Numbered from the stretch's first letter, positions 8,251 to 17,188 are shown. The stretch: DNA of 64,000 bases from Candidatus Doudnabacteria bacterium RIFCSPHIGHO2_12_FULL_48_16 (GCA_001780035.1 MFEY01000007.1:198343-262342); one strand, 5' to 3'. Notes: generated by a model not told the origin, from the sequence alone. Numbers and translations: made by a program.

Positions 8251-10377
8251 TCAACTGCAGCTATTCGTGATATTCGGATGCATTCGTAGATTAGGATCGC
8301 GATTGAGTCTGATATAAATATACCAAAATATTGACCAAATGACAAAGCCATCCCATAAGGTAAACGGCAGGTCATTGCCGGTGCGCGGCAGGGTCGCGCC
8401 AAGCACCTGGCCGCTAGCACCCAGGCTGGCGATTTTTATCTGATTCAATTCTCCCGGAGTGGCCAGCAGGCTCCAGGCAAATGTCCCGTCCGGTAATAAA
8501 TTATAGGATTGATTTTTGGGCGCATCTTCGTATTCGAGAGATGAAATAATTTGGCCGGCCGGGTCAATAACCGTGATTGTTTCTTTGCCGGAATTATTGA
8601 GGGCCAGATTGCTTTCGGATTTAAGCAGGACATAATAATGTCCCGGCTCAATTATCGGCGAATGAAAAGTATATTTACTCGCCGCATCCGCCACCTGCCA
8701 ACCATGCAGATCCAACGGCTGGCTGCCAGAATTAAACAGCTCAATAAATTCCTGCCCGCTAGTGGAAGGCTCCGGATACAGTTCGCTGATCAAGAGGCCG
8801 GAACTAACCGGCTCTAGCTCTTCGGGTCTTGCCTCATTGACCGCATTCGGCGTGGGGTCAATCCAAATCCATTGGCCGGCAAGGAGCGCATAGCTCTGGC
8901 CCTCTTTGCCCGCTTCAAAAGTGACCGAATCAATTAAGATTTTATTTTCATTAAACAGCCGCACGGTTTCGCTGCCGGTATTATCGAGTGCAAATCTACC
9001 GGCCGGAATCATGATCACGGCCAATCCCCCGGGATATACGATCGGGCTTTGGATCTTGTAAGCGGAAGATCTGATCGCCTGATCGGATGCGCCATCATCC
9101 AAAATCCAGTTGTGCAGATAAACCGGCTCTGACCCGGTGTTTAAGATCTCGACCCATTCTCCCCCGCTGTCGCTGCCGGCCGGATTCGGAAAAATTTCAT
9201 TAAACTTTATTTGCAATTGCGCCGGCGCGGTGACGGGCGGCGCAACTGCGCCGGCGCCAAACTGATTGGCCGCGCCTTTGGTAACAAAGCTCGTCCAGGC
9301 AAAAGATCCGTCGTCCTGCCGAGCGTAAGTTTCATTTTCTTTGGCTGGTTCTTTGTATGCAACCAATCTTAATTCTTGCTTGTCCGGCCACATCAGGCGC
9401 AAAGTGTCGCCGCCCGTATTGTTGAGTGCGAAACTGCCATCCAGCAGATCGATCACCAAAAATGATTTCGCGGCAACCTTGGTTTGGCCGGGAATGACAT
9501 AAGCGGAAGAACCGACGAGACCTGATTGGCCGGCATCATCCAAAATCCAATCGCTTAAGTCAACTTCGGAACTTGAATCATTGTATAATTCCACCCATTC
9601 TTCTCCGCCATCCGGGCCTTCGGGGTTGGGCGCAAATTCCGAAACCACAATGGCGCTGGAATAAAGCGGCGGCGCGGGAGCGGAGGTGCCGCTCGTTTCT
9701 GCCGGAGGAGTTGCCTCGCTGGCAGGCAACCCGTCCGCAGGCGGGTCAGCTGGCGGCGGCTCCGGCGCGAGCGGCAAGGCCGGCGTTGGGGTCGCCGACG
9801 AATTGCGCGGATGGCCGCTGACTTCCATAAAATCCGTGGAATTATTGTTTGTATCTAGGCCATTGCCCGCCTCCCCGCCAGGCAAGCGTTCAAGTGATTG
9901 GTTCGTGCCTGGGTTAGCGGCAAATGCTGACCCTTCGACAAATGCATTGGTGGCCTGGCCCCAGGCCACGCTGTCGATGATGGCCCCGGTATCATTGGCG
10001 CCATTGCGCAGGGCGACCGCATTGTCATCGGCAATGCTGCCGGTGGTGCTAGTGTCCGGCGCGGCTGAAATATCCGTAAAACTTGAATTGGCCCAAAGAT
10101 AAAAGCCGTGCGCTTTGACAATGGTTGAAGCGGTCCAGGATTTGAGCGCTGTGTCGGTCGTACCGGTTTTGGTCCGCTTGACCAGGCGATAACCTTTGAG
10201 GTCAATATCGGATGAAGTCGGATTGTAAATTTCCACGAAGTCGTTGGTCGTTTTGCCGCTGCCGCCGGTAATCTGGATTTGGCTGATGACCAGGTGGTCT
10301 GTGTCGGCGCGAGCCAGAAACGGCAAAAAGATTAAAACCCCTATAATAAAACAGATTTTTCTTGGTATTGGTTTCAT
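8251..10377 (-). CDS. Lamin-tail-domain (LTD) repeat surface protein with C-terminal LPxTG-type sorting signal
   Basis: Signal peptide MKPIPRKICFIIGVLIFLPFLARA. At least three LTD units (EFAPNPEGPDGGEEWVELYN..DLS.W.LDD; NEIFPNPAGSDSGGEWVEILN; SELYPEPSTSGQEFIELFN). Pro-rich linker. C-terminal LPRTG, then hydrophobic stretch, then RLNR. Confidence 0.7.
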   Translation of the reverse strand: MKPIPRKICFIIGVLIFLPFLARADTDHLVISQIQITGGSGKTTNDFVEIYNPTSSDIDLKGYRLVKRTKTGTTDTALKSWTASTIVKAHGFYLWANSSFTDISAAPDTSTTGSIADDNAVALRNGANDTGAIIDSVAWGQATNAFVEGSAFAANPGTNQSLERLPGGEAGNGLDTNNNSTDFMEVSGHPRNSSATPTPALPLAPEPPPADPPADGLPASEATPPAETSGTSAPAPPLYSSAIVVSEFAPNPEGPDGGEEWVELYNDSSSEVDLSDWILDDAGQSGLVGSSAYVIPGQTKVAAKSFLVIDLLDGSFALNNTGGDTLRLMWPDKQELRLVAYKEPAKENETYARQDDGSFAWTSFVTKGAANQFGAGAVAPPVTAPAQLQIKFNEIFPNPAGSDSGGEWVEILNTGSEPVYLHNWILDDGASDQAIRSSAYKIQSPIVYPGGLAVIMIPAGRFALDNTGSETVRLFNENKILIDSVTFEAGKEGQSYALLAGQWIWIDPTPNAVNEARPEELEPVSSGLLISELYPEPSTSGQEFIELFNSGSQPLDLHGWQVADAASKYTFHSPIIEPGHYYVLLKSESNLALNNSGKETITVIDPAGQIISSLEYEDAPKNQSYNLLPDGTFAWSLLATPGELNQIKIASLGASGQVLGATLPRTGNDLPFTLWDGFVIWSIFWYIYIRLNRDPNLRMHPNITNSCS

Positions 10378-10478: not shown

Positions 10479-11024
10479 TTATTGCCAGTTTTCTATTTTA
10501 GCTTTCAAGATCGTGACGTTCTGGGCAATCCTCAATCGGTCGACTAAAATCTGAAATTCTTTAGGCAATAGGACGGGTCCAATCATCACGCTTTTTTGTA
10601 AATTAGTAAATCCGTTATTTAACAAAAATTTTCTCAAAAACCGCCGGTGGCGCCGCTTGTCTTCTGCAATATCAAAAACAATGACCGTGGCAAACCCATC
10701 AGTCCGCGGGGTCTTGTGTTTGGCCGCATGATTTATTAGCTGTTTCAACTCACCATCAATGGTCAATTGATAGTAAACCTTGTCGTCGGTTCGCTTTTTC
10801 GTGATCAATCCACTTTTTTGCAGACGATGTAATGCCGTTGTAATCGCCGGACCATTATACTGACCGCGCAATTTCTGCCGCAACCATTTATGATGATAGG
10901 CTCGACCCATCAGAGCGGCTGAGTAATACTCGTCAAATCCTTGAAAAAACTCCAATAATTTTCTCGGTAAGGACTCAATAGCTTTATTGACAGCTTTTTT
11001 AATTTTTTTACCTTTTTTAACCAT
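10479..11024 (-). CDS. Winged-helix regulator with C-terminal Cas2/PaaX_C-like domain
   Basis: N-terminal wHTH (LHRLQKSGLITKKRTDDKVYYQLTIDGE). C-terminus TVIVFDIAEDKRRHRRFLRKFLLNNGFTNLQKSVMIGPV resembles the Cas2 beta-alpha core (VIVYDI..DKRR..GxRVQxSV). Confidence 0.45.
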   Translation of the reverse strand: MVKKGKKIKKAVNKAIESLPRKLLEFFQGFDEYYSAALMGRAYHHKWLRQKLRGQYNGPAITTALHRLQKSGLITKKRTDDKVYYQLTIDGELKQLINHAAKHKTPRTDGFATVIVFDIAEDKRRHRRFLRKFLLNNGFTNLQKSVMIGPVLLPKEFQILVDRLRIAQNVTILKAKIENWQ

Positions 11025-11103
11025 AATTTTATTATATCATAAAGTGTCGATCGGTCTAAAGTGATATAAATTTAAATTAAACAAATCGGTTTAGATGGCT
11101 CGT

Positions 11104-11568
11104 TTACTCTTTTTTATGGCTTTCTTTTTCCTGTTCTTCCCCGGCTTTTTTGACCTCTTCCGGCAGTTGCTTATACAAAGTGCCCAGCACCCCGTTGACG
11201 AACTTGCCGCTGCTTTCCCCGCCGAAGGTCTTGCCCAGCTCCACCGCCTCGTTGATGGCAACCTTCGGCGGCACCTCATGAGCAAACAAGAGTTCGTAAA
11301 TTCCCAAGCGCAAGATACTACGGTCGATCACCGTAATCTGCTGCAGGGGCCATTCCGGCGCGGTTTTGACGATGATCTGGTCAATTTCCGGGATATGTTT
11401 TTCCACCCCGGCAATCAGATCAAATATAAAAGCGGGATCGTCGAGGCCCGGCGCAAACTGCTTGACATTGTGTTCGGTGATCGCAAGCAGCGAATTTTGC
11501 CGGTCATTGAAATCCCACTCATACAGACTTTGCATCGCGACCGTGCGCGAAAGGTGTCTGTTAGCCAT
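11104..11568 (-). CDS. nusB: Transcription antitermination factor NusB
   Basis: RSILRLGIYELLF...VAINEAVELGKTFGGESSGKFVNGVLG, a classic NusB motif. Confidence 0.9.
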   Translation of the reverse strand: MANRHLSRTVAMQSLYEWDFNDRQNSLLAITEHNVKQFAPGLDDPAFIFDLIAGVEKHIPEIDQIIVKTAPEWPLQQITVIDRSILRLGIYELLFAHEVPPKVAINEAVELGKTFGGESSGKFVNGVLGTLYKQLPEEVKKAGEEQEKESHKKE

Positions 11569-11571
11569 AAT

Positions 11572-11766
11572 TTATTTTTTTACTTTAGCGGTTTTGACCT
11601 TTACCACTTGCCGGCCCTTGTAGAAGCCGCAATTGGAGCAGGCTTCGTGGGGGCGGGACGGGAAATTGCAATTTTTGCAAACAGACAGGTTGGAAGCTTT
11701 GAGATGATCGTGGGAACGTCTCTGGTTTCGTCCGGACCGAGTCTTGTGTTTCTTTGGAACAGCCAT
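11572..11766 (-). CDS. rpmF: 50S ribosomal protein L32
   Basis: MAVPKKHKTRSGRNQRRSH... with a Cys cluster (CKNC...CSNC). Confidence 0.85.
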   Translation of the reverse strand: MAVPKKHKTRSGRNQRRSHDHLKASNLSVCKNCNFPSRPHEACSNCGFYKGRQVVKVKTAKVKK

Positions 11767-12041
11767 GGGATGATTTAGTGATTAGTGATTAGTAGCTATG
11801 AATTTATAACATAAAAATTTGATTTGGTCAACGCCCGATTTAACCTTTATCTGCCTCCGAGCGCCCTTCCCCAACATCTGCCGGCGAACAGGAGATCTGA
11901 CAAGCCTTGCGGCTTTTCAGATTCGCCGGCAGATGACAGGGGGGAACATACGATTGATCGCAGGTTCCCCGAATCGCATCGAGCCTTGCGGCCCTGCGAT
12001 TACTCAATGTCCAAGCACGGACATTTAACCCCCCTTATTGA

Positions 12042-12215
12042 CTAGCTATGCGGATCTGTGTGGGCCTCGAACAATCTGTGCGCGGGACGATCGTGGATCC
12101 AATCATCCGCCTTGTGGCCTTCCAGGAGAAGGACCAGGGCAAAGCCTAAAATCACGACCTCGGTAACCAGAATCCCCAGAACGACCAAGACAACGACGCC
12201 GAAGATCTTGCCCAT
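12042..12215 (-). CDS. Island gene: 57-aa single-TM hydrophobic peptide
   Basis: MGKIFGVVVLVVLGILVTEVVILGFALVLLLEGHKADDWIHDRPAHRLFEAHTDPHS. GGAGG RBS 4 nt upstream. Below the 60-aa track threshold. Confidence 0.5.
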   Translation of the reverse strand: MGKIFGVVVLVVLGILVTEVVILGFALVLLLEGHKADDWIHDRPAHRLFEAHTDPHS

Positions 12216-12236
12216 GCAGCCTCCGTTGAGAAACAG

Positions 12237-12296
12237 CTACCACTCGCGACGGATCGCGAGGCTGACCATTCCGATGAACGCCCCGCCGATCGCCAT
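12237..12296 (-). CDS. Island gene: 19-aa hydrophobic micropeptide (type I toxin-like?)
   Basis: MAIGGAFIGMVSLAIRREW, 21 nt upstream of the 57-aa peptide gene. No clear SD. Confidence 0.25.
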   Translation of the reverse strand: MAIGGAFIGMVSLAIRREW

Positions 12297-12438
12297 GATG
12301 ATCGGCGTCTGAGTGAACGATGCCAGTGGGATTGTAACCCAATACTGCTTGCATTCGCAAGCAATATTCCCACTTCTCCGGGTTTGAAAAAATTTCAAAT
12401 CCAGGGAAGTGGAGAGGAATTGAAAGCGGATATTCTTG

Positions 12439-12664
12439 CTAATCAATTCCTCTGTGGTTTCGCGAGTTATCGCGGACAGCCATCTGCCATCCGCGCCGTT
12501 CCTTGCGACTGCGGGGCTGAGCGGCACCGCCCTCATAGAGGTCGTAGCCGCGCCAGTAGGCTCGCCAGCGCTCGTGGCCGAAGAATTCCCCCCAGGCTTT
12601 CGGGCAGCCGAGCCGATGAAACGGCCACCATCGACGCTGGGGCCGGCAGGCTTCACAGATCATC
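12439..12664 (-). CDS. Island gene: 75-aa Cys/Trp/Arg-rich small protein
   Basis: MICEACRPQRRWWPFHRLGCPKAWGEFFGHERW... Its ATG overlaps the TGA of the upstream membrane gene (ATGA coupling). Confidence 0.4.
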
Positions 12665-13019
12665 GCCAGCTCCGACTTTTGACGGTCAGCCCCAGACCGG
12701 CACGCAGTTGGTTGAGGTAGTATCGCACGGCCGAGCGATACATCCAGCGCGGCCGTTGCATGATCCCCCAGACAATCATGGGGATCAGCACCGGCGCGAG
12801 CAGCAGCTCCACCAATCTGGCCGGTCGGGACCAGTATCGGGAAGCAATCTCGTGCTCGCCCATCCGGACGACGTAGTGGTGAAACGCAATCGCGCCCCAC
12901 ACGCCGAGGCCGATCAACGGCTGTTCGATGGCCAGGTAGTGGAGAATAGCCACCGCGCGGGAGACGACGAGCGAGACGAGCCCACCGATCATGCCGTAAA
13001 GCTCAATCACTGAGTCCAT
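12660..13019 (-). CDS. Island gene: 119-aa three-TM membrane protein
   Basis: MDSVIELYGMIGGLVSLVVSRAVAILHYLAIEQPLIGLGVWGAIAFHHYVV...LLAPVLIPMIVWGIM. AGAAAGAGG RBS. The track ORF 12660..13280 is N-terminally over-extended by Arg-rich translation. Confidence 0.5.
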   Translation of the reverse strand: MDSVIELYGMIGGLVSLVVSRAVAILHYLAIEQPLIGLGVWGAIAFHHYVVRMGEHEIASRYWSRPARLVELLLAPVLIPMIVWGIMQRPRWMYRSAVRYYLNQLRAGLGLTVKSRSWR

Positions 13020-13060
13020 GTATCGCCTCTTTCTTGAATAGCAACATGCCGAATCCCCCT

Positions 13061-13309
13061 TCAGTAATGACGAAATCCGGGCGGCGGCTGGTTGAGCGCC
13101 CTGATAACCCGAAGCAGCACGCGGCAGATCAATATGAGGATGATCAGGTCGTAGACCGCGTAAAGCGCCAGCACGAGGACGGGCACGCCGAGCAGAAAAT
13201 AACCGACGCGCTCGTGGCCGGTCGCGAACGGGATGATCACGATCCCGAGCAGGATCGCGGCGACGAAGCGATACTTCCACGACGGATGAAGTTCAAACTG
13301 CACACGCAT
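13061..13309 (-). CDS. Island gene: 82-aa two-TM membrane protein
   Basis: MRVQFELHPSWKYRFVAAILLGIVIIPFATGHERVGYFLLGVPVLVLALYAVYDLIILILICRVL. ATG 1 nt past the stop of the upstream ORF. Confidence 0.5.
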   Translation of the reverse strand: MRVQFELHPSWKYRFVAAILLGIVIIPFATGHERVGYFLLGVPVLVLALYAVYDLIILILICRVLLRVIRALNQPPPGFRHY

Positions 13310-13496
13310 GGGCCACCTCTTTGAGGAAGTAGTAATCCTTCTGGTTGACCAGGCCGCGCTTCTGGACCTCGGCCAGCCAGACCAGGTAGGTCGGCTACCG
13401 GTCGATGGGCAGCCGGACTTCGATCTCGTCCAGCAACTGCTGGCTCCACGACCCGAGACTGTCGGGCGCGAGCGGCAGATTGCGCCAGGTTGTCAT
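13293..13496 (-). pseudogene. Island gene interrupted by an in-frame TAG (33 aa + 33 aa)
   Basis: MTTWRNLPLAPDSLGSWSQQLLDEIEVRLPIDR-TAG-PTYLVWLAEVQKRGLVNQKDYYFLKEVAHACAV. GTGTGAGGTG RBS context. Coherent peptide on both sides of the amber codon. Confidence 0.35.
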
Positions 13497-13602
13497 ATCT
13501 ATTCACCTCACACAAAAAAAGAACCAACAATTGCAGCCACAATGTAAGGAATTAACCGCGAAAGTTCAAAGACTAAATTCTAGTGTTCTCTTTAACTGTC
13601 GG

Positions 13603-13630
13603 TTAACGCCCTAGCATTCTAGAAACAAAA
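13603..13630. repeat. Island R motif (single copy) TTAACGCCCTAGCATTCTAGAAACAA
   Basis: Matches the TAACGCCCnAGnATTnTnGAAACAA consensus shared with 14256-14282 and 14933-14960. About 108 nt upstream of the next island gene's ATG. Confidence 0.5.
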
Positions 13631-13846
13631 TTTTCAATTTTATATCTTACGTTTCGTTCTTGCGGAACAGGATTCCGATCCTCTGAACTCCATTCATCGC
13701 ACAATGCGATTGAAGTTCAAGGGAAGGGAGGGAGAAGTATTGGCGTACTTGCTCCCGGGGATTTGTTCGGGACTATTTCGCATGAGGACCATGCAACTTG
13801 ATCCACGAAGGAGAGACTTACAAACGGACTCGCCAAAGTCCACTGG

Positions 13847-14146
13847 TTACTCGCACTTGCCGCCTAACTGGTCCTTGGTCATAACGGCAATCTGGCCGCT
13901 CGACGTAGTAAACACGCAGGCGTGACCTCGCTCGGTCACGCGGATGGGATTAGCGATGAACGCCACCAGATGGAATATGATGGCGAAAACGATCACTACG
14001 CACATCAGCTTGAATGCGAAGACGGCGCTATTGATGTCGTTGAGAGTGTTGTTCGCACTCTCGAGAACGTTGGTGTCAGTCACCCACTGCGCGAATTTGG
14101 CAGTGGCTTCATCCACGAGTTCTTTTACCCGCTGACCTGAATACAT
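13847..14146 (-). CDS. Island gene: 99-aa protein with central TM helix
   Basis: MYSGQRVKELVDEATAKFAQWVTDTN...LMCVVIVFAIIFHLVAFIANPI. GTGTGAGGTCAAA-ATG RBS context. Confidence 0.55.
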   Translation of the reverse strand: MYSGQRVKELVDEATAKFAQWVTDTNVLESANNTLNDINSAVFAFKLMCVVIVFAIIFHLVAFIANPIRVTERGHACVFTTSSGQIAVMTKDQLGGKCE

Positions 14147-14203
14147 TTTGACCTCACACTTGCTTAGCTAAGAGTGTTGACGAAACTACGAACTTTTGTT
14201 TTC

Positions 14204-14282
14204 ACGATTCTGGGTGCTAAGTTTAACTTTCAAGGCTGTATAACTGAATTCATCCTTAGTTCTAACTAACGCCCAGGATTGT
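14204..14282. repeat. Island long imperfect palindrome (R-motif pair)
   Basis: TTGTTTTCACGATTCTGGGTGCTAAGTT ... AACTAACGCCCAGGATTGTGGAAACAA: about 24-bp arms with G-T wobbles, 24-nt loop. Confidence 0.55.
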
Positions 14283-14409
14283 GGAAACAATTTCCCTTCC
14301 GAAACTCTCAAGTTCTACTTACTGATTACTATTTACTGCTTACTTGAGTTCTTTGGAAGGGAGAGAGGAACCGGAAGGGATTGGACCTTCACGTTTCCTC
14401 TCAACTTGT

Positions 14410-14706
14410 CTAGCGTTCGTACATGGCGCCGCGGGGCTCTGGCTGACGCCAGAACGGGGTCGCGATGGATCCGGTGCAGACCATCTTCGGCGCGTGCTCC
14501 GCGATCGCCTTGCGCCGCATGTCGGCCGCGAACTCGTGCTCGGTCAGCGGGACGACCGGTCCGGCGATGTGCAGCTTGCGCTGCGCGTGGTGCACAGCCA
14601 CCCTGACCGCCTGGTGGAAGTTGGTCGCGTTCGTGACCTCGATGGTCACGGGCGGCATGCCGGGAAAAAGAGCCGAGGCGACGGGCAGTGCGAGTGTCAT
14701 GTTCAT
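14410..14706 (-). CDS. Island gene: 98-aa hypothetical protein
   Basis: MNMTLALPVASALFPGMPPVTIEVTNATNFHQAVRVAVHHAQ... GTGTGGAGGAC RBS context 8 nt upstream. The track ORF 14410..14724 starts slightly earlier. Confidence 0.5.
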   Translation of the reverse strand: MNMTLALPVASALFPGMPPVTIEVTNATNFHQAVRVAVHHAQRKLHIAGPVVPLTEHEFAADMRRKAIAEHAPKMVCTGSIATPFWRQPEPRGAMYER

Positions 14707-14870
14707 GTACTCTGTCCTCCACACGAGTTACCGAGTTTATTTTATTTGATCCAGCTGAGTGTCAGCCGGCACTGTTCGATACGAATCCTTTTTGCCCTTG
14801 AGACTTTCTTCGTGACAGTCTTTCGGGGCTTGTGCGTGTTTCTCTCATCTTGCACCCCTTTTGTTTTCAA

Positions 14871-14960
14871 AATTCTGGGGACTTATCTGATTGCTAGAGG
14901 GCAAATATATAATTTCCCTGCTAAATCGAGATAACCCTCCCAGAATCCTGGAAACAACCC
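14871..14960. repeat. Island long imperfect palindrome (R-motif pair)
   Basis: TTGTTTTCAAAATTCTGGGGACTTATC ... GATAACCCTCCCAGAATCCTGGAAACAA: about 25-bp arms, 36-nt loop. Confidence 0.55.
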
Positions 14961-15169
14961 CGACGCTTTGGTCAGGATAATTTCGCTCTTGCGAAATTAA
15001 AAAAGGTCCTTGCAGGACCAAAATGCGCTGATGCTTATTCGGTCCTGAACGAATAAGCACGACTATTCATTTTTAAAACAACATATAAGTATAGTCCGAT
15101 TTGGGGGGCTTGTCAAGAGATAAGGGTAGATAAGGGCTAGAGTTAGCCAAAAAGTGGTTAGTGGGCAGT

Positions 15170-15240
15170 GTTTAGTGGCTAGTTTAAAGCCCGGGAATTC
15201 CCGGGCTTTCTAATCACTAACCACTATTCACTAATCACTC
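15170..15240 (-). terminator. groEL terminator: AAAGCCCGGGAATTCCCGGGCTTT hairpin inside a ~30-nt imperfect inverted repeat (TTAGTGG / CCACTAA repeats)
   Basis: Perfect GC hairpin immediately after the groEL stop, flanked by AGTGGTTAGTGGGCAGTGTTTAGTGG and its imperfect complement. Confidence 0.5.

Positions 15241-17188
<1,948 letters not shown>

Follow-up and report, generated by a model that had tools for sequence, protein, structure and literature searches.

The stretch of DNA analysed here, referred to throughout as the window, is 64 kb of the genome of Candidatus Doudnabacteria bacterium RIFCSPHIGHO2_12_FULL_48_16 (MFEY01000007.1:198343-262342). It contains an island of small genes, at 11830-15150, lying between rpmF/nusB (11104-11766) and groES/groEL (15241-17188); the genes on both flanks and the genuine genes of the island are all on the minus strand. 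Within the island are three imperfect palindromes, 96-99 nt in size and palindromic over their whole length, which were named hpA-1, hpA-2 and hpA-3 (Table 1). These are copies of a new hairpin module, hpA, of approximately 90-130 nt, which is constrained in its structure and punctuates a hypervariable, operon-like island at a fixed site, the order of the locus being groES-groEL, island, rpmF-nusB. The genomes of bacteria of the Candidate Phyla Radiation (CPR, or Patescibacteria) are small and poorly understood, and the locus bears on the question of how they vary the small proteins, surface-located or secreted, by which they are presumed to live on a host cell.

A preliminary description of the sequence had reported three copies of a motif ending in GAAACAA, two of them partnered by an inverted copy 25-36 nt away so as to form stems of about 24 bp. 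When the motif was scanned across the whole window, all three right-hand copies were indeed present (13604-13628, 14266-14290 and 14933-14957), as were the two inverted left-hand copies (14196-14214 and 14861-14879), although the positions originally given for the second copy and for both partner arms were displaced by about 8-10 nt. All five close copies fall within 1.4 kb, with none elsewhere in the window, and as the full motif pattern is expected 0.00 times in dinucleotide shuffles, the grouping is well beyond chance. However, the arms of each element are 57-59 nt apart rather than 25-36 nt, and the intervening sequence pairs too, such that the short stems originally proposed are in fact parts of full-length hairpins with 35-41 pairs each. 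The copy at 13603-13630, which had been thought to be unpartnered, also has a partner in the form of a degenerate arm at 13530-13548. Folded as sense RNA, hpA-1 has a predicted free energy of -41.6 kcal/mol.

Further elements were found beyond the window by scanning metagenome contigs for the paired-arm pattern, which produced two more prokaryotic contigs. One of these, once extended (locus L133), has the same synteny as the window, with groES-groEL, an island of around ten small genes, and rpmF-nusB. NusB homologues place the organism in Candidatus Doudnabacteria, and led to the loci of seven more species with available DNA and one more without. Every Doudnabacteria locus has a 3-7 kb island of small open reading frames (ORFs) lacking Pfam matches between groEL and rpmF/nusB; the island proteins across the loci likewise had no match in PHROGs or PADLOC, the sole exception in any of the three databases being a DUF5715 protein in L134. 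The earlier proposal to search with a covariance model did yield additional copies in related genomes: a model, R1, built from 18 aligned hpA copies, detected 29 distinct copies in ten Candidatus Doudnabacteria loci, representing ten species, all of them inside islands. These are 90-132 nt long and folded over their whole length, and all 29 score higher on the gene strand and occur in a single orientation, the same as that of the genes. The model found no copy in the approximately 220 kb of DNA flanking the ten islands, whilst nothing in 753 kb of unrelated control DNA, from loci each chosen for containing one exact arm, scored above 23.5 bits.

Searches elsewhere gave no sign of hpA. A scan of GTDB genomes for single arms returned at least 120 single matches, with no partner arm among the matches listed, and these are chance occurrences; a further candidate from the metagenome scan (L130) was rejected as a chance palindrome in eukaryotic DNA. 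No hpA match was present in viral contigs, scanned for paired arms, or in phage and plasmid collections, searched with blastn, and Rfam 15 had no match to hpA either at gathering thresholds or at E values of up to 10. An exact GroES look-up returned the same strain only (at least 99.9% identical), and therefore carried no comparative signal. A full-text literature search also found nothing relevant, and the element and its island appear to be undescribed.

The elements are conserved to an extent that the genes around them are not. Between loci, hpA copies are 75-89% identical, compared with 76% for rpmF-nusB DNA; NusB is 84-86% identical, whilst shared island genes are few and only 32-62% identical. 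L133 shares 76% of its rpmF-nusB DNA with the window and has unrelated island proteins, yet hpA is kept: hpA-1 is 86-89% identical to the copies at L133 9860-9957 and 11027-11124, with unrelated flanks. The island has a G+C content of 50-53% in every species, with flanks at 39-50% (in the window and L133-L138). The suggestion that the conserved elements lie between the genes of a compositionally distinct island is supported. The uniform G+C content of the islands and the fast divergence of their proteins are consistent with a shared, fast-evolving gene pool. Within species, by contrast with this divergence between them, contigs from different samples have islands that are identical or at least 99.75% identical, differing by a few substitutions and one 161 bp deletion at most. 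This deletion, the only structural difference among nine contigs of the window strain, is found near window position 12315 (L124 12117-12279), where 161 bp are missing relative to the NCBI assembly of the same strain, and takes out most of an ORF encoding a 70 aa membrane protein. Many public metagenome contigs of two Doudnabacteria species stop at or inside the island (L126-L128 and L142-L147), which hints at assembly breaks induced by repeats or by strain heterogeneity; in another contig, L141, nusB is joined to a ribosomal protein operon instead.

The pairing within hpA was studied in an alignment of ten type-I members, which has a consensus hairpin of 34 pairs. In this alignment 97.3% of cells are paired, whilst in slid controls, in which the partner was shifted by 1-3 columns, pairing was only 35-53%. 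Double compensatory changes were found in 11 of the 34 pairs, against 4.4 +/- 1.4 in shuffled alignments, none of 500 shuffles reaching 11. The arm variants CTGGG/CCCAG and CTGAA/TTCAG covary as a compensatory pair, and the L133 copies starting at 9860 and 11027 differ by a compensatory change from C-G to T-A. The 18 pairs of the basal stem are 97.2% paired, position 7 alone being regularly unpaired, and T1, T2, T4, T16, G90 and A97 are invariant. The non-canonical pairs are strongly asymmetric: the type-I alignment has 34 G:U cells and no A.C cells, and the basal stems of all 18 aligned copies have 30 G:U against four A.C. Sense RNA folds better than antisense in 22 of the 29 copies, with a mean gap of 5.8 kcal/mol (p = 0.001). 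When DNA parameters are used, 24 of 29 copies still favour the coding strand, the preference being weaker (mean -1.7 kcal/mol). Given the compensatory changes and the G:U bias, the pairing of hpA is under selection in the gene-sense strand.

A strand asymmetry had been noted in the preliminary description, where it was ascribed to wobble pairs on the plus strand and taken as a hallmark of sites recognised as folded single strands, similar to attC, or of antisense RNAs. The asymmetry is real across the family, but in the window it favours the minus strand. Of the three hairpins, the plus-strand bias holds for hpA-2 alone, the copy on which the preliminary argument rested and one of few exceptions in the family, for which the RNA folds at -37.2 kcal/mol on the plus (antisense) strand against -27.1 kcal/mol on the minus; the other two hairpins fold better on the minus strand, hpA-3 at -28.9 kcal/mol as sense against -18.9 kcal/mol as antisense. 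The elements are recognisable as sites that fold as single strands, with G:U tolerated and A.C avoided, although membership of attC did not hold up, and that the favoured strand is the sense strand of the genes argues against an antisense RNA.

The same description had taken plus-strand ORFs as the genes, with the motif lying 108-110 nt before the next ATG in two cassettes. The measured distances are 76, 133 and 66 nt, and the genuine genes are assigned to the minus strand because they carry GAGGT/GGAGG ribosome-binding sites there, are called on that strand in public assemblies of the same strain and, in the case of one island gene, have homologues in related islands (Table 1). In the other loci, antisense gene calls within islands (for instance L136 7236-7685) were rejected as probably spurious, a plus-strand basic ORF ending at the stem-loop being a better fit to the usual junction.

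Table 1. Features of the island in the window (positions counted from the first nucleotide of the 64 kb stretch).
Feature	Position	Strand	Remarks
Island promoter, TTGACA-17-TATACT	15088..15116	-	11/12 consensus positions; kept in all seven aligned leaders
Leader hairpin P1, CTTATTCG-TTCAGGAC-CGAATAAG	15034..15057	-	20-nt stretch 100% identical to L133; compensatory changes
Leader intrinsic terminator, GGTCCTGCAAGGACC then T-run	14995..15019	-	Found by terminator scan
hpA-1, first island hairpin	14860..14957	-	Minus strand 5'-TTGTTTCCAGGATTCTGGG...CCCAGAATTTTGAAAACAAA-3'; 94.4 bits with model R1
Small basic ORF, 37 aa, GTG start	14742..14855	-	Opens 4 nt past hpA-1; 56% identity to L132 1153-1254
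Gene C, 98 aa, first larger island gene	14410..14706	-	Called in public assemblies; homologues in L136 and L138
Hairpin B (TCCCTTCC...GGAAGGGA)	14293..14362	-	Inverted repeat directly 5' of hpA-2
hpA-2, second-type centre	14195..14290	-	74.9 bits with model R1; 86.5% identity to L133 11934-12021
Gene B, 99 aa, one hydrophobic segment	13847..14146	-	GAGGT ribosome-binding site; ATG 48 nt past hpA-2
CCCTTCC-type motif, gene B 3' region, upstream of hpA-3	13714..13734	-	Direct repeat of 14347-14367
hpA-3, degenerate 3' arm CCTTACATTGTGGCTGCAAT	13530..13628	-	53.4 bits with model R1
Short ORF with in-frame TAG	13396..13497	-	Starts 32 nt past hpA-3
Remaining island ORFs (82, 119, 74 and 57 aa)	12042..13309	-	No hpA between them
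Conserved long hairpin at island 3' end, CATCTGCCGGCGAA...TTCGCCGGCAGATG	11875..11935	-	Also L133 13790-13860 and L136 9466-9545

The genes separated by hpA are small and mostly without relatives. Gene B has none among 5.8 billion proteins, its sole match being a 99% identical copy of itself, and neither gene B nor gene C matches anything in Pfam, PHROGs or PADLOC. The basic ORF following hpA-1 is of a type, 33-37 aa long and rich in Arg and Lys, whose C terminus (AKR[IV]RIEQ[CY]R..WIK) is kept in two species, but which was not found in most other islands. The ORF after hpA-3 (13300-13497, minus strand) has an in-frame TAG after 33 codons, beyond which it continues in frame into the start of the next gene, making it either a recent pseudogene or a candidate for read-through.

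A consistent arrangement surrounds the elements. A Shine-Dalgarno sequence and start codon lie within 95 nt past 22 of the 29 copies, mostly at 12-62 nt, and on the other side a GC-rich stem-loop ends 0-14 nt upstream of most internal copies. In the window this is exemplified by hairpin B, which is a terminator-like structure or the 3' end stem-loop of the preceding cistron; the same CCCTTCC/GGAAGGG hairpin adjoins hpA in L132, L133 and L138. The promoter, hairpin and terminator of the leader upstream of the first element are conserved in seven species (window 14995-15125, minus strand; L132 805-1041; L133 9145-9354; L134 6255-6399; L135 4230-4374; L136 6400-6549; L137 4980-5124). Hairpin P1 has a loop complementary to the terminator's 5' half, an arrangement that recurs in other species with compensatory changes, such as a GGAG/CTCC change in L137, whilst the loop itself is conserved as TTCAGGAC. 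Equivalent terminators are present in six other species, and in five the T-run passes straight into the 5' arm of the first hpA. The leader, which has no match in Rfam, looks like an undescribed transcription attenuator. At the opposite end of the island, the 3' end hairpin (CATCTGCCG...CGGCAGATG) is located just upstream of the rpmF promoter, within a structured stretch at 11830-12040, with further GCAA-loop hairpins close to it. Short repeats of the CACTAATCAC type flank the groEL terminator (15150-15240) and have inverted copies in the rpmF 5' untranslated region (11770-11800), thus bordering the island on either side; in L133, too, they follow groEL.

Several simple functions for hpA were considered and rejected. 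No pair of sigma-70-like promoter hexamers at a workable spacing is found within the element, hpA-3 alone giving a weak 9/12 match, and an AAC/CGT promoter resembling those of extracytoplasmic function (ECF) sigma factors fits one copy only. An operator in double-stranded DNA, formed by a palindrome within the arm (CCAGAATTCTGG), was dismissed because that palindrome is not kept, many copies having CCAC...CTGG. The elements do not resemble intrinsic terminators, having 33-47% G+C, A-rich sequence following on the sense strand and no T-run on either strand. The ends, GTTT...GAAAC, are suggestive of CRISPR, which consists of direct repeats of around 23-55 nt with short non-coding spacers; here, the palindromes are around 98 nt long and around 665 nt apart, with ORFs and their ribosome-binding sites between them. 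A link with the 181 aa protein encoded next to nusB in the window (10479-11024, minus strand), which combines a winged helix of the PadR/PaaX type with a Cas2-like domain in its middle, was also discounted, as species differ in how far it lies from the island and several loci lack it.

The reading we tentatively favour, and which may well be correct, is that hpA is a cis-acting RNA hairpin within a leader-controlled polycistronic transcript, where it delimits and stabilises each variable cistron. The island genes would be read from the single conserved promoter, past the leader hairpin and terminator, into one polycistronic RNA, in which each hpA would form a long double-stranded element acting either as an RNase III-type processing site or as a stem protecting 5' or 3' ends. 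In either case each variable cistron would be uncoupled and stabilised, and its translation start shielded from whichever gene precedes it. Recognition would fall to the conserved 19-nt basal stem, the centre needing only to pair. As hpA is the only conserved sequence inside otherwise unrelated islands, the copies probably also serve as homology anchors during gene swaps. This reading is preferred because the elements keep a fixed orientation and sit after a closing stem-loop and ahead of the ribosome-binding site that follows, because there is a single promoter, and because the strand asymmetry is larger at the level of RNA. Each copy has 28-41 pairs, so the presumed transcript would contain double-stranded RNA exceeding the length, of at least approximately 20 bp, expected of an intercistronic RNase III site.

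A number of observations weigh against the RNA hairpin. Transcription through the hairpins, and any cleavage of them, are inferred. RNase III, which needs no specific sequence, leaves the strong conservation of TTGTTTCC...ATTCTG unexplained, and this conservation suggests a specific factor. In DNA, too, G.T does the least harm of all mismatches, and the strand bias persists with DNA parameters, hence recognition of the sense strand as single-stranded DNA would fit equally well. The stem-loops ahead of hpA resemble terminators, which raises the question of how the distal genes come to be transcribed. Finally, the near-identical centres and divergent termini of two L133 copies point to exchange between copies at the DNA level. 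A search for the RNase III signature motif gave no match in the locus sequences scanned, which is uninformative.

Some of these observations would be accommodated if hpA were a recombination site similar to attC, though not attC itself, recognised as folded single-stranded DNA of the sense strand, at which gene cassettes are inserted, deleted and swapped within a chromosomal array. The agent would be an unlinked recombinase, or homologous recombination following DNA uptake, and the sense strand would be the lagging-strand template if the genes are co-oriented with replication. In keeping with this, gene content differs almost wholly between species whilst shared hpA types persist, the G+C content of 50-53% in all islands suggests a shared pool, and the genes, behind one promoter, are small, co-oriented and without detectable relatives. 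Furthermore, the two L133 copies that differ at their termini share an identical 75-nt centre and flank unrelated genes, assemblies often break at the island, and the tolerance of G.T, like the strand bias found with DNA parameters, applies to single-stranded DNA. However, the islands of one species are nearly invariant, the 161 bp deletion apart, and the termini of each copy are mutually complementary, with no chimeric, mismatched copies among them. At none of the loci is there a recombinase within or beside the island, the sole integrase being more than 5 kb beyond nusB in one contig. The structure also departs from attC in its core, its polarity, its lack of an unpaired central spacer and in the better-folding strand being the top, coding one, where attC uses the bottom. 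We therefore regard a recombination site as less likely than the RNA hairpin, though plausible.

The two readings could be combined in a cassette array that is independent of an integrase, hpA being a new structure-specific recombination site, unrelated to attC in sequence and polarity, that doubles as an RNA insulator. Naturally competent CPR bacteria with reduced genomes might thereby capture and shuffle genes for small secreted or membrane proteins from a shared pool, and express them from the single attenuator-controlled promoter; we judge this improbable.

A little more doubtful again is that hpA is an RNA site for a sequence-specific factor, either a nut/put-like signal for processive antitermination, with re-loading past every terminator-like stem-loop, or a site bound by a translational regulator. 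The invariant positions of the highly conserved basal stem would be accounted for in this way, as would the location of hpA directly after terminator-like stem-loops, including that of the attenuator-like leader, whose T-run is the start of the first hpA in five species; and small Arg/Lys-rich ORFs do adjoin hpA in the window and in L132 (Table 1). Antitermination signals, however, are known to work a single time, close to the promoter, rather than recurring ahead of every gene, most islands do not keep the basic ORF, and no candidate factor is linked to the locus.

The last alternative, that hpA is a selfish miniature inverted-repeat transposable element (MITE) of the Correia, ERIC or REPIN kind, moved by a transposase acting in trans and tolerated between genes without a function of its own, agrees with its conserved 19-nt arms as terminal inverted repeats, its length of around 100 nt, the several near-identical copies with unrelated flanks and the nested insertions in some copies (L137 5125-5250 and L149 3795-3926), but is very unlikely given that none of 22 copies has a target-site duplication and that all 29 are in one orientation at one locus per genome, with none in the flanking DNA, whilst the compensatory changes and G:U bias reflect selection on pairing in one strand and the conservation of hpA exceeds that of housekeeping coding DNA. 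L135 does carry a gene for an IS200-like Y1 transposase (10600-11300), just past nusB and with a GIY-YIG gene as its neighbour. Inverted pairs of a different, GTAG-type repeat, the GTAGCGGAAGGC...GCCTTCC hairpin, lie to either side of the transposase gene, which is thus a REP/RAYT arrangement in a CPR genome that is unrelated to hpA; a link between hpA and this RAYT-like gene (10692-11171) was rejected on the same grounds.

What is conserved across this candidate phylum is hence a platform at one chromosomal site, comprising a promoter, an attenuator-like leader, variable genes delimited by hairpins, and a terminal hairpin. As the sole conserved sequence inside the island, and one whose structure is selected in one strand, hpA provides a concrete and testable handle on the system, and the covariance model can be used to chart it in metagenomes. 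Should it be an element for RNA processing or insulation, it would represent a natural modular design for the expression of arbitrary genes; should it be a site of recombination, the integron principle would have been invented a second time, independently.

Several characterised systems offer parallels to hpA. REP and REPIN sequences are, like hpA, extragenic doublets of inverted repeats forming hairpins of around 100 nt, but they are dispersed and have a GTAG head that hpA lacks. The hairpins between cistrons of phage T7 that are cut by RNase III leave stable ends on each processed mRNA. Like hpA, they are long and imperfect, and lie shortly upstream of the next ribosome-binding site; they have no sequence relationship to hpA, whose cleavage is only putative and whose host is a CPR bacterium rather than a phage. 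ERIC, or IRU, sequences are transcribed palindromic intergenic repeats of enterobacteria. The Correia elements of Neisseria fold, as RNA, into long hairpins; RNase III can bind these and then either cleave or protect them, altering the expression of adjacent genes (PMC2649163). Both are inverted-repeat elements of around 100-150 nt that are co-transcribed with their neighbours, as hpA would be. However, they are dispersed genome-wide in both orientations, with target-site duplications, whereas hpA is restricted to one island and one orientation, has no duplications and is selected for its pairing.

The attC sites of integrons are imperfect palindromes of 57-141 nt with a core of 5'-RYYYAAC...GTTRRRY-3' containing an AAC triplet (PMC5027507). 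The length of hpA, at 90-132 nt, falls within this range, but the resemblance proposed earlier does not extend to the sequence: the core is absent from both strands of all 22 copies examined for it, and hpA instead reads 5'-TTGTTTCC...GGAAACAA-3', its 5' arm holding the GTT and its 3' arm the AAC, the opposite of attC. It has no unpaired central spacer of 5-6 nt. In attC, extrahelical bases on one arm set the choice of strand; hpA does have asymmetric single-base bulges, at arm position 7 and columns 20-22, although not at the attC positions. An integron has its integrase gene beside the array or, for arrays without one, elsewhere in the genome; neither an integron integrase nor any other tyrosine recombinase was found in or beside the island in ten loci of 15-20 kb. 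In addition, hpA is located near the next start codon, after a separate stem-loop, rather than immediately after a stop codon. Nevertheless, the resemblance at the level of organisation is considerable. Both hpA and attC, above all the uniform attC repeats of sedentary chromosomal integrons such as those of Vibrio cholerae, are imperfect palindromes of around 60-140 nt whose ends are conserved and whose centre varies. Both are found between small, co-oriented genes that are mostly without relatives, behind one promoter at a fixed chromosomal site; in both, the repeats are similar within a lineage whilst the genes differ, and folding is strand-specific. Hence hpA works somewhat like attC, but is not a member of that family.

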